A stretch of DNA of 64,000 nt, from IMG/VR virus record IMGVR_UViG_3300010201_000017. One strand, 5' to 3'. Under the pieces are notes generated by a model. It saw nothing but the letters and a program-made list of their open reading frames with translations, did no database searches and was not told the DNA's origin. Position numbers and translations under genes: made by a program. Below are positions 35,543 through 38,080 of this stretch, one piece after another; position 1 is the stretch's first letter; every line of letters starts with the position of its first letter. The stretch is from a virus. Lineage: Duplodnaviria > Heunggongvirae > Uroviricota > Caudoviricetes.

Positions 35543-38080
35543 ATGGCAAAGGCTTCGAACCTCGCTCGCATCGACCGCAATTCCACTCGGGCACCGCTCA
35601 AATCATCGTTCACCCCCACCATGTCCAAGGAATTGGTCACTGCACTGCTGGAAGCAGATAGCGAGCCTGAGGTTCTCAACGTCATCAACTCGAACAAGTT
35701 CATGTCCAATCCGGACAACTGGATTCCGATTGCCAAGAGCGAGAACAACATAGCCACCGTCAACAATCAGTCGGCCGACCCGACCAAGGCGCTGTGCGAA
35801 ATGCTGACCAACATGGTGGACGCAGTGCTGCTGCGGATGGCCACCGAGCGCGGCATTGATCCGCGCTCATATGAGGCGCCGAAGTCGATTGCCAACGCGG
35901 TGGAAACGTTCCTCGGCTGGAAGGATGGCCGACTAACGAATGGCTTCGACAATATGAAGGAAGCAGGCAAATGGGCCAGTGAAAACCTGATGGTTGCTTT
36001 CACAGGCGCTACCAATCTCGCCACCGAACCGACACTTGTCTTTTGTGATTCAGGTGAAGGACAGCACCCCGAAGACTTCGACCGCACGTTCATGTCGCTC
36101 GGCGAGGGCGGCGGCAAGCGCGACATTAAGTTCGTGCAGGGTCAGTACAATATGGGTTCGAGCGGCGTGCTCGGTTATTGTGGCGAATATGGCTTCAAGC
36201 TGATCGTTTCGCGTAAGCATACGCTCGACGGCAAGTGGGGCTGGAGCCTCGTTCGGCGGCGACCAAATTACGATTCCATCGTATACGAATACTTCAAGGT
36301 CGGCGGCGTCGATGGACAGATTCCCTTCATCAACGATGAAGTCGTCAGCATGGTGTACACTAAGGATGGCAAGCCTTATGAGGACACCAAGTTCACCTCT
36401 GGCACGGCGGTGAAGCTTTTCAACTACCGCATTGGCGGCGACTATCGTGATTTCGACGGTCCGCGGCGTGTCTTCTACGAACATCTCGCCAACTCCGTCA
36501 TGCCGGTCCGACTGCTCAATCTCTTGGGGCCGGGTTCCAAGAACAAAGGCAAGGTGCGTGCGGCAGGTGTCGACGCCCGTACGTTCTGCGGCCTCGAGGT
36601 CCACATATCCCAAGCTCTGTCGAAGGATCACCGTCCAGGCCAAGAACTTCTTGAGGAAGAATTCGAGACCGACACTTCATCACAGAAGGGCGCACGTCCG
36701 ATCGACGTCGGATATATCGACAGTCCATTGTTCGGCAAGATTTCGATCCGTGGCTATTTCACCGAAGACGATATCACCAGCCGAGCGCGCGGCCGCAGCC
36801 CTGGGGCGGGATTTATCCGGTCCGTCAATCGAGCTTTCTTCTCGGTGAATGGGCAGATTCAGCATCGCGAGGGAAGAGGGTTCCTGACAGATTGCGGCCT
36901 GCCGGCGCTAAAGGATCACCTTGCCCTTCTAATCGATTGCTCGAACCTGACTCCGCGCATGCATCAAACGATCTGGAAATCGGATCGCGAGGCGATGCTG
37001 GTCGGCAAGACCGAAGTGAAGGACATTCTGAAGAAAATCAAAGATCATGTCTCTGCATGCCAAGCTCTGATCGATCTGAACAACGAGGTTCAAGAAAAGA
37101 ACCTGTCGATGATGATCGACCAATCGGCTCAGCTGATCTTCACAAAGCTCGTCAAACGTGATCCGACCCTTGCTCGACTGCTGAATGGTGGTCTGCCGAT
37201 TGCTGCTGCGATCGGTATGGTCAATCCAACCAAGATCGAACCGATCCCGGCGGCGCCCTATGAAGGGTTGCATTCTCCGACCTATTTCGACTTCGTCTCA
37301 AACACGAAGAAGTTCGATCTGCAACGCGGCAAGTCTCTGACCATTCGCACCAAGACGAACGTCGCAGACGATTATTTCATCCGTGACAGTGACCGTGGCG
37401 AATTGGTCATTTCGGAAGGTCTGAACGAGATCGGCGTTGTGGCGACCCGTCAGACGATCCGGAACGGGTTCATCTCCGTCACTTTCACCGCACCCGCAAA
37501 CGCGCCTATCGGAAATATTCCGATGACGATGACGCTTTCCGATAGGACTATGACCAAACGGGCTGCACTCAGGCTGAAGTTCTCAGTAAACGTCATCGAG
37601 GCGCTCTCGGAAATCGAAGGCGAAAAGCCGAAGAAACGGGAGCGGCGTGAAAAGGCGATCACGCCGCCCTCTGCCGGCTACATGACCAAAGACGGTCGGG
37701 AAATCGACGGTCAAAAAACGGCTGAGTGGCCAGAAGGCTGGGACGAACGTGATGGCGCGAAGGTCGACATCAGTCGCGAGGGACTTGTCACGATTCTGAT
37801 CAATTACGACTGCGTTCACCTGCAGAGTCATCTTGCGCGGGCCTCGGACATCAATCGTCGGAAACTGCTGACGAAGTTCAGTCTTGCGATGCAGGTTACA
37901 TGTCTCGCGGCAGTGCAGCAGATCAGCCATCTGAAGGAGACACAACCGGATATCACTGAGGACGAAACTGATCGCCTGATCCGCAACGCCGCAGCCGTCG
38001 CCGCTTCCACGGCAATCGCTCTTGTCGATACGGTTCCGAAGATCATGTTCGACAAGAATGAAGAACCTTCGGAAGACTAG
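35543..38080 (+). CDS. large Hsp90/MORC-type GHKL (Bergerat-fold) ATPase domain protein with a long C-terminal region of no recognised family
   Basis: N-box E-x3-N-x2-DA (ALCEMLTNMVDAVL), G1 DxGxG (FCDSGEGQ), G2 GQ[FY]xxG (VQGQYNMGSSGVLGY; compare Hsp90 GQFGVGFYS). The start is placed at ATG 35543 (MAKASNLARIDR), which has a GGAGAG SD. ORF 35339 extends upstream over the repeat region. Confidence 0.55.
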   Translation: MAKASNLARIDRNSTRAPLKSSFTPTMSKELVTALLEADSEPEVLNVINSNKFMSNPDNWIPIAKSENNIATVNNQSADPTKALCEMLTNMVDAVLLRMATERGIDPRSYEAPKSIANAVETFLGWKDGRLTNGFDNMKEAGKWASENLMVAFTGATNLATEPTLVFCDSGEGQHPEDFDRTFMSLGEGGGKRDIKFVQGQYNMGSSGVLGYCGEYGFKLIVSRKHTLDGKWGWSLVRRRPNYDSIVYEYFKVGGVDGQIPFINDEVVSMVYTKDGKPYEDTKFTSGTAVKLFNYRIGGDYRDFDGPRRVFYEHLANSVMPVRLLNLLGPGSKNKGKVRAAGVDARTFCGLEVHISQALSKDHRPGQELLEEEFETDTSSQKGARPIDVGYIDSPLFGKISIRGYFTEDDITSRARGRSPGAGFIRSVNRAFFSVNGQIQHREGRGFLTDCGLPALKDHLALLIDCSNLTPRMHQTIWKSDREAMLVGKTEVKDILKKIKDHVSACQALIDLNNEVQEKNLSMMIDQSAQLIFTKLVKRDPTLARLLNGGLPIAAAIGMVNPTKIEPIPAAPYEGLHSPTYFDFVSNTKKFDLQRGKSLTIRTKTNVADDYFIRDSDRGELVISEGLNEIGVVATRQTIRNGFISVTFTAPANAPIGNIPMTMTLSDRTMTKRAALRLKFSVNVIEALSEIEGEKPKKRERREKAITPPSAGYMTKDGREIDGQKTAEWPEGWDERDGAKVDISREGLVTILINYDCVHLQSHLARASDINRRKLLTKFSLAMQVTCLAAVQQISHLKETQPDITEDETDRLIRNAAAVAASTAIALVDTVPKIMFDKNEEPSED

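Follow-up and report, generated by a model that had tools for sequence, protein, structure and literature searches.

A predicted GHKL-S5 ATPase of the MORC/MutL/Hsp90 class, solitary in an alphaproteobacterial lineage, from a large unnamed family found beside DNA modification genes

The window analysed here is the 64,000-nucleotide (64-kb) stretch of IMG/VR record IMGVR_UViG_3300010201_000017, and the gene under study, on its plus strand at 35543..38080, encodes a predicted ATPase with GHKL and S5 domains. The source is an uncultured alphaproteobacterium whose best named pyrG matches are 80-82% identical (Bradyrhizobium, Tardiphaga, Afipia and Xanthobacteraceae), and the G+C content around the GHKL gene is unremarkable. 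The open reading frame (ORF) is uninterrupted over 35339-38080, with 913 codons counted from its first ATG; a start at 35543 gives 845 amino acids (aa), a start at 35621 gives 819 aa, and the JGI call is 891 aa. Because the alignment of homologues begins only at residue 27 (in the 845-aa numbering from 35543 that is used for all residues of the window protein), the ATG at 35621 is an equally plausible start, and a Pfam search of the 68 codons upstream of 35543 returned nothing. The downstream neighbour is pyrG (38153-39805, minus strand). Upstream, a 243-aa ORF of no known family (33585-34316, plus strand) runs into the beginning of a standalone ORF of 227 aa for an ART-PolyVal ADP-ribosyltransferase (34298-34981, plus strand), and a 67-aa ORF with a hydrophobic, signal-peptide-like N-terminus (34971-35174, minus strand) lies between ART-PolyVal and the GHKL gene, as it does in three loci of the comparison set (L001, L002 and L097). 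Pfam matched neither the 243-aa ORF nor the antisense small ORF, and no topoisomerase A-subunit gene neighbours the GHKL gene.

The Bergerat motifs that a preliminary description, made from the sequence alone, had placed in the N-terminal 250 aa are present where it put them and are invariant across 38 homologues. Conservation was assessed on two alignments, one of these 38 homologues and one of 61 diverse members of the family at 22-35% identity. Motif I of the window protein (EMLTNMVDA, 35798-35824) reads E86-x3-N90-x2-D93-A94; all four residues are invariant among the 38 homologues, and in the alignment of 61 diverse members N90 and D93 never vary and E86 is kept in at least 90%. Motif II (DSGEGQ, 36047-36064) reads D169-x-G171-E-G173, and the G2 motif or ATP lid (FVQGQYNMGSSGV, 36131-36169) reads F197-V-Q-G200-x2-N-x-G205-S-S-G208; neither alignment shows any variation at D169, G171, G173, Q199, G200 or G205. 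The long distance between the N-box and G1, which had been attributed to an insertion, measures 79 aa and does reflect an insertion, but one that is not peculiar to this gene: the extra stretch of about 50 aa between motifs I and II (~35834-36022) is conserved family-wide and contains an invariant P113.

Sequence libraries link the window protein to the GHKL superfamily only faintly. Searches against Pfam, PADLOC and NCBIfam gave no match except a meaningless 10-bit one to a TAT-signal model, PDB sequences gave nothing significant by phmmer or with the 38-sequence profile, and the Pfam models HATPase_c and HATPase_c_3 did not match the window protein at E ≤ 1. The preliminary remark that some 600 aa match nothing recognised therefore holds for these libraries. 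HATPase_c_3 is the sole recurrent Pfam family, matched at E ≤ 0.01 by 10 of the 61 diverse members, and its best score among all members scanned, 24.7 bits in one distant member, compares with a gathering cut-off of 25. In an hhalign comparison of the 61-sequence profile with a neighbouring bona fide HATPase_c_3 protein, which was non-significant (E 0.087), DxGxG and G2 fall on the DTGRG and GTYGLG of that protein. Profile support for a GHKL assignment is thus weak but consistent.

The assignment is carried further by structure prediction. An AlphaFold2 (AF2) model of the window protein (mean pLDDT 78) contains a Bergerat fold, and in fold comparisons of the full model with known structures the values were 13.8 for the MORC3 ATPase-CW cassette (283 residues aligned), 13.7 for GRP94, 13.6 for TRAP1, 12.9 for MLH1, 12.8 for MutL, 12.4 for SMCHD1, 11.3 for MORC2 and 10.6 for Topo VI-B. 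MORC3, MLH1 and MutL align with the model over 255-283 residues, which exceeds the GHKL domain alone, so that the match would span the S5/transducer as well; a separate model of residues 375-845 still resembles the middle regions of MORC3 (over 119 residues) and GRP94. In the predicted model of the window protein, an S5 transducer thus comes after the GHKL ATP-binding domain, the arrangement typical of the MORC/MutL/Hsp90/topoisomerase class. The Bergerat-fold ATP-binding domain covers residues 27-250 (35621..36292), and the S5-fold transducer or middle domain covers residues ~251-485 (36293..36997), as supported by the MORC3 fold match and invariant columns. Within the S5 region, N436-G-Q438 and D481-R482 are family-invariant in both alignments, and R482 and N436-G-Q438 may touch ATP.

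On this prediction, about 230 of the C-terminal ~600 aa belong to the S5/transducer half of the ATPase module, and the remainder, conserved family-wide, is made up of a coiled coil, a pair of Ig-like sandwiches and a helical hairpin. The long helical or coiled-coil segment occupies residues 490-547 (37010..37183). Ig-like beta-sandwich 1 (residues ~575-688, 37265..37606) holds the most conserved C-terminal motif, T-D/N-x2-N/D-D-Y-x2-R-x4-G, at residues 605-619 (37355-37399). It is followed by a disordered basic linker (residues 689-705, 37607..37657), a small beta domain 2 (residues ~706-756, 37658..37810) with D717-G-R, W729, D737-G and N754-x-D756, and a long C-terminal helical hairpin (residues ~757-836, 37811..38050) that is a candidate dimerisation element. 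The basic patch KPKKRERREK (residues 695-704, 37625-37654) lies in the linker, which has pLDDT below 50 and is poorly conserved in the family, and it was rejected as a functional module. No nuclease, Toprim-like or other enzyme fold was detected in the C-terminal part by fold comparisons of the predicted models, and the 61-sequence alignment contains no invariant acidic cluster in the C-terminal half; D606 is the only C-terminal acidic residue conserved at 90% or more, and the window protein has Asn at that position. The suggestion that the C-terminal module could be a novel effector is not borne out by this anatomy, since it consists of the S5 half and family-wide structural elements and no enzyme fold was detected in it.

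The same anatomy bears on whether the gene encodes an ordinary housekeeping GHKL protein (HtpG, MutL, or GyrB/ParE/Topo VI-B) or a decaying relic; an ordinary HtpG or topoisomerase identity is what the preliminary description had named as contrary to its own view. No NCBIfam or Pfam model of HtpG/Hsp90, MutL or GyrB matches, no curated GyrB/ParE/Topo VI-B model matches the window protein, and a Toprim-like fold is lacking; the C-terminus has Ig-like sandwiches and a hairpin in place of the Hsp90 middle/C-terminal regions, the MutL C-terminal domain or Toprim. The family is patchily distributed and linked to modification cassettes (described below), and the ORF is unbroken and encodes every invariant residue. 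HtpG, topoisomerase or MutL identity was rejected on the absent model matches and the C-terminal fold, and the housekeeping or relic explanation as a whole is scarcely credible. Relative to MutL/MLH1/PMS1, the family lacks the C-terminal dimerisation/endonuclease domain and is not universal; relative to eukaryotic MORC3, MORC2 and SMCHD1, the window protein lacks CW, PHD and hinge domains, is only 9-15% identical, and sits in a bacterial context.

Far from being an orphan, as it had been called, the window protein shares its full-length architecture with some 2,250 clusters at 50% identity. A word-index search returned 274 full-length relatives at 96% coverage, all annotated as hypothetical and none with a Pfam domain, and an exhaustive profile search returned 2,253 clusters (50% identity) at E ≤ 1e-3 and 757 at E ≤ 1e-30. 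Nearly all of the 2,253 clusters are 750-830 aa long, with the full-length architecture common to them. Among GTDB representative genomes, at least 577 species have a relative, and the family extends over Alpha-, Beta- and Gammaproteobacteria, Chloroflexota, Bacteroidota, Nitrospirota, Verrucomicrobiota, Firmicutes and Patescibacteria, and also archaea. Eight plasmids, four of them haloarchaeal, carry a member annotated as "hypothetical protein", and no record in the phage collection has one. The family is thus large, unnamed and patchily distributed, with a fixed architecture and without a Pfam, NCBIfam or PADLOC model.

In the subfamily nearest the window copy (31-36% identity), a PF00145 C5 cytosine methyltransferase adjoins the GHKL gene in essentially every locus with enough flank, either co-directionally (methyltransferase then GHKL, with a 4-nt overlap in some loci) or divergently, and these methyltransferases form one orthologous group that is 48-74% identical across phyla. 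The divergent form has five genes, with vsr, the methyltransferase and a 61-aa MerR/HTH_17-like gene on one strand and a 77-80-aa protein followed by GHKL on the opposite strand. Vsr occurs in about 30 loci. The MerR/HTH_17-like gene occurs in 19 loci, 5' of the divergent methyltransferase (for example L003 9331-9516, minus strand), and this small helix-turn-helix (HTH) protein may be a controller-type regulator, by analogy with systems that have a toxic restriction (R) component. The conserved 77-80-aa protein occurs in 32 loci, distant subclades included, directly upstream of the GHKL gene (for example L003 9731-9988, L004 9762-10004 and L025 7745-7978); it has the consensus ..REEDRAKFVKLASARVSKALKDIQLIGNLANRSNYDYTDEDV.KIFKAL.EE..ACKKRFE and no Pfam family. 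Minimal cassettes, such as L006 and L007, consist of the methyltransferase and GHKL only and contain no other candidate restriction gene.

In distant subclades (25-30% identity), GHKL genes adjoin either a convergent N6_N4 methyltransferase or SspC and SspD (PAPS reductase) with a DndB-like gene, a set that is the SspBCD phosphorothioation module. On the Halogeometricum plasmid pHBOR02 a divergent site-specific DNA-methyltransferase lies beside the GHKL gene, and on the Ensifer adhaerens plasmid pC (L098) an ATP-binding protein and a PAPS-reductase family protein are annotated upstream of it. At the latter locus, a 777-aa "sensor histidine kinase" and a 680-aa hypothetical protein lie between the PAPS-reductase and GHKL genes (1327-5702) and may be extra parts of the Ssp-linked variant. 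Helicases do not recur among the family's neighbours, and no other ART neighbour was seen. In a neighbour-joining tree of 82 members, the GHKL proteins cluster by the type of adjacent modification gene. Since in most lineages the family member is the sole non-modifying enzyme in compact cassettes and the subclades track modification type, it is on balance rather likely that the family is an ATP-driven, restriction-like effector that acts on DNA without the cognate mark.

A different role can be drawn from the same neighbourhoods, in which the family would be a MutL-like repair or maintenance helper of modification enzymes, for example by stimulating Vsr at T:G from 5-methylcytosine (5mC) deamination, and the solitary copy in the window would be harmless and useful. 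The presence of Vsr beside C5-methyltransferases, the lack of a nuclease domain and the persistence of a solitary clade would suit such a helper, as would the functional interaction of E. coli MutL with Vsr (cited in PMC2292703). Dcm-type methylases, however, generally come with Vsr, which is missing where the neighbours are N4/N6-methyltransferase or Ssp genes. Operons of just a methyltransferase and a GHKL gene whose stop and start codons overlap resemble classic modification-restriction (M-R) pairs, and the small HTH beside the methyltransferase resembles controller proteins that restrain toxic R genes. A repair helper is accordingly improbable, and an effector arm of modification cassettes is the preferred role for the family.

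The tie to conflict systems that the preliminary description proposed stands for the family, given its modification cassettes, defence-island neighbours and plasmid members, but the window copy lies outside any defence island, in conserved pyrG synteny without partners. The gene order of two DUF8359 genes, ATP_bind_3, Peptidase_S11, a 242-aa ORF, ART-PolyVal, GHKL and pyrG is conserved in five lineages, and the GHKL proteins of the syntenic orthologues are 59% (P0002), 58% (P0003), 53% (P0005) and 44% (P0008, order largely kept) identical to the window protein; pyrG is 81% identical between the window lineage and that of P0002. A further lineage (P0007, 43%) keeps GHKL and two upstream DUF8359 genes, lacks ART-PolyVal, and has no pyrG downstream on its contigs. 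No methyltransferase is adjacent at the syntenic orthologue loci or in P0007, and the 35 kb upstream and 26 kb downstream of the window GHKL gene hold no cognate methyltransferase, Vsr, HTH or 77-aa gene. Searching with tblastn for the cassette methyltransferases, the 77-aa protein and the HTH found nothing in the window, and the amino-methylase motif [DNS]PP[YFW] occurs in no putative window ORF of at least 100 aa. The neighbour-joining tree unites the six solitary proteins in a monophyletic group whose sister is a large C5-methyltransferase-linked clade, and the nearest outgroup examined, P0012, has a full cassette inside a defence island. The solitary clade lacks the methyltransferase, Vsr, MerR-like HTH and 77-aa partners, is conserved along its whole length and retains all family-invariant residues, and clade-wide substitutions affect some 30 positions with 90% or higher conservation among cassette-linked members, including W217, N312, W414, R459H, N475, E519/E520, R599, N617 and Y751. 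A second clade without a detected modification gene (L053, L054, L061, L065 and L070, from Nitrospirota/Thermodesulfovibrionales) has neighbours of housekeeping appearance in common, one for a HAD-like hydrolase and one for a large acyltransferase. The solitary, vertically inherited state may have more than one origin.

The region upstream of the window gene also bears on its status. The preliminary description had noted a repeat-decorated promoter, and TGAAGGATTCG indeed occurs there three times, at 35413, 35434 and 35466. The promoter-like region (35413..35487, plus strand) comprises TTGACA (35457-35462), a 19-nt spacer and TAAAAT (35482-35487), together with three direct (TG)AAGGATTCG copies within 62 bp, the third of which lies between TTGACA and TAAAAT. 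A sigma-70 consensus scan reported no promoter at this site because the spacer is 19 nt long. All five orthologous loci examined, whose GHKL proteins are 43-60% identical, retain the 9-mer AAGGATTCG upstream of the gene, and in several of them an inverted copy lies just 5' of a TTGAC(A) -35-like element and a direct copy just 3' of it. The repeats were rejected as specific to the GHKL gene, as the motif is genome-wide: the window has 17 copies against 1.1 expected (none of 100 shuffles reached 17), for example at 12938, 12979, 24402, 24474, 35415-35476, 39919, 51121, 51219 and 60848, and 11 of the 17 fall in non-coding sequence, which makes up ~13% of the window. AAGGATTCG resembles a global regulator site, and the GHKL gene appears to be wired into this host-wide regulatory motif, which fits a resident chromosomal gene and not a recent acquisition. 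Two copies lie just upstream of a tRNA-Ile with anticodon AAT (51241-51316, plus strand; ARAGORN), an anticodon that is unusual in bacteria, where it is normally GAT, or CAT modified with lysidine. The core of AAGGATTCG is GATTC, a GANTC site, and GANTC is strongly depleted, as the window has 247 sites where 433 are expected and each of the shuffles had more. Such depletion is known from alphaproteobacteria with CcrM methylation, and it is compatible with CcrM-type methylation in this alphaproteobacterium.

Loss of the partner genes, vertical inheritance, a host promoter motif and retention of the invariant ATPase residues together suggest that the window copy is most likely a domesticated, still ATP-active, DNA-directed clamp and not a working classical restriction-modification effector. 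This domesticated or function-shifted state ranks above two others. In one, the restriction-modification system would be intact and split, with the window effector restrained by a modification enzyme encoded outside the 64 kb. Such an arrangement was raised for standalone paraMORC3 proteins (Iyer et al. 2008, PMC2292703), and it would agree with the retention of all family-invariant residues, with the strict methyltransferase linkage of the sister clade and with the GANTC depletion, which would be compatible with an active CcrM-type methylase. One orthologous lineage (L013) moreover has a C5-methyltransferase 7 kb away, beyond pyrG; this enzyme is only 23-25% identical to the cognate group, hence unrelated to it, and was rejected as a dislocated cognate partner. 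The lack of cassette genes over the distances given above, the clade-wide substitutions at positions conserved in cassette-linked members, and the instability of unlinked restriction and modification genes over a divergence of 43-60% identity with synteny kept all tell against a split system, which is unlikely, though a real contender.

In the other, ART-PolyVal and its overlapping 243-aa partner would have replaced the methyltransferase, as a new self-marking enzyme or as a co-effector. This ORF pair is conserved upstream of GHKL in most orthologous loci (L002, L012-14 and L095-97) and could be a toxin-antitoxin-like or other conflict module; as a 242/243-aa ORF and ART-PolyVal it is directly upstream and co-oriented in P0001, P0002, P0003, P0005 and P0008, in the position that the methyltransferase takes in co-directional cassettes. 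The whole 10-kb neighbourhood is syntenic, however, so descent can explain the adjacency; the P0007 lineage keeps GHKL without ART-PolyVal; a gap of ~560 bp holding the conserved antisense small ORF and a separate promoter intervenes before GHKL; and ART neighbours are not seen elsewhere in the family. Functional coupling to ART-PolyVal is therefore very unlikely.

Taken as a whole, the gene is read as a MORC/MutL/Hsp90-class ATPase of a restriction-modification-like effector family, with the window copy a domesticated solitary derivative, and this reading is probable, though not strongly so. Several points weigh against it. The C-terminal half shows neither a nuclease fold nor a conserved acidic cluster, so it is gene context that carries the restriction role. 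The profile link of the window protein to GHKL is weak and its fold assignment relies on a predicted structure, and the clustering by modification type comes from a single neighbour-joining tree without support values. The view of the host genome is limited to 64 kb, and a cognate methyltransferase could sit elsewhere; the L013 lineage does have a methyltransferase at a distance, and ART-PolyVal, kept at most orthologous loci, could be a functional partner. The observation in the preliminary description is confirmed, and its interpretation is partly supported.

Among described systems, the prokaryotic MORC and paraMORC1-5 families are the closest in organisation; they were predicted to act in restriction-modification with cytosine methylases, Vsr, helicases and nucleases, and some are standalone (PMC2292703). 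Like the present family, they have an N-terminal GHKL domain, an S5 domain and then family-specific C-terminal extensions, and are patchy, laterally mobile and neighboured by cytosine methylases and Vsr; paraMORC3 includes standalone members with a possibly changed function (PMC2292703), as proposed here for the window copy. By the published descriptions, the family is set apart from paraMORC2-5 by its lack of the paraMORC3 RE-fold domain (E-D-ExK), the paraMORC4 TIR domain, the paraMORC5 HxH motif and the paraMORC2 S5 ExxxH motif. It also differs from the published paraMORC picture in showing no superfamily II helicase association, in having no scanned member that passes the HATPase_c_3 gathering score, in its ~50-aa insertion between motifs I and II, in its C-terminus of coiled coil, two Ig-like sandwiches and hairpin, and in pairing also with N4/N6 methylases and SspBCD.

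One subclade of the family adjoins the SspBCD modification genes with which SspE (DUF262 and HNH) and SspFGH work, but SspE, SspFGH and DndFGH have no sequence or domain relationship to the family: SspF and DndF are Walker-A proteins and SspH and DndH are FtsK-like (PMC8092258), and no PADLOC Ssp or Dnd model matches the GHKL proteins. SspFGH or SspE identity was rejected on these grounds. In PADLOC-DB v2 the window protein has no match, and a scan of five diverse homologues gave a single stray weak match, in one of them (PDC-S06, E 5e-4). The defence protein VcSduA, a GHKL-Shedu fusion ending in a DUF4263 PD-(D/E)xK nuclease (PMC12137116), is likewise a single chain in which an N-terminal GHKL ATPase and a clamp-like middle control a C-terminal module, whereas in the present family no nuclease fold and no PADLOC Shedu match were detected.

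The core activity that we commit to, by analogy with MORC, MutL and Hsp90, is that of a putative ATP-gated DNA clamp. In those three families, ATP drives the dimerisation of N-terminal domains. In the proposed mechanism, ATP binding would cause the N-terminal GHKL domains to dimerise, as in MORC and MutL, and the C-terminal hairpin would provide a second dimer contact so that a ring or clamp closes on DNA. The beta-sandwich region with the TDxxNDYxxR motif may sense DNA or its modification state, and the closed clamp would block unmarked DNA or recruit damage to it. If the family does restrict DNA, it might do so through an unrecognised catalytic site, a recruited nuclease, or action without cutting; as no classical nuclease site is visible, any cleavage would fall to one of the first two. 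A bolder version, and a long shot, is that a nuclease-free clamp restricts unmarked DNA by entrapment, compaction or replication block, that it has been repeatedly re-tuned to 5mC, N4/N6-methyl and phosphorothioate marks, and that in the window lineage it has become a domesticated reader of host methylation, with a GANTC core in the promoter motif AAGGATTCG. If real, such a clamp would have its counterparts in the silencing carried out by eukaryotic MORC proteins and in MutH and MutL, which were recruited from restriction-modification systems.

Although restriction-modification operons were predicted to contain GHKL/MORC-type ATPases as early as 2008, these proteins are still almost unstudied, and the present paraMORC-type family, large and unannotated, adds to them an association with three modification chemistries, no recognisable nuclease and an unusual C-terminus. 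As 84% of sspBCD loci are without a known restriction partner (PMC8092258), the family could supply the missing partner for some of them. It could define a new restriction mechanism and show how MORC-like clamps read DNA marks. The solitary clade to which the window copy belongs would be a natural case of a defence-derived ATPase retained chromosomally, the type of transition that has been proposed for MutH, MutL and eukaryotic MORCs.

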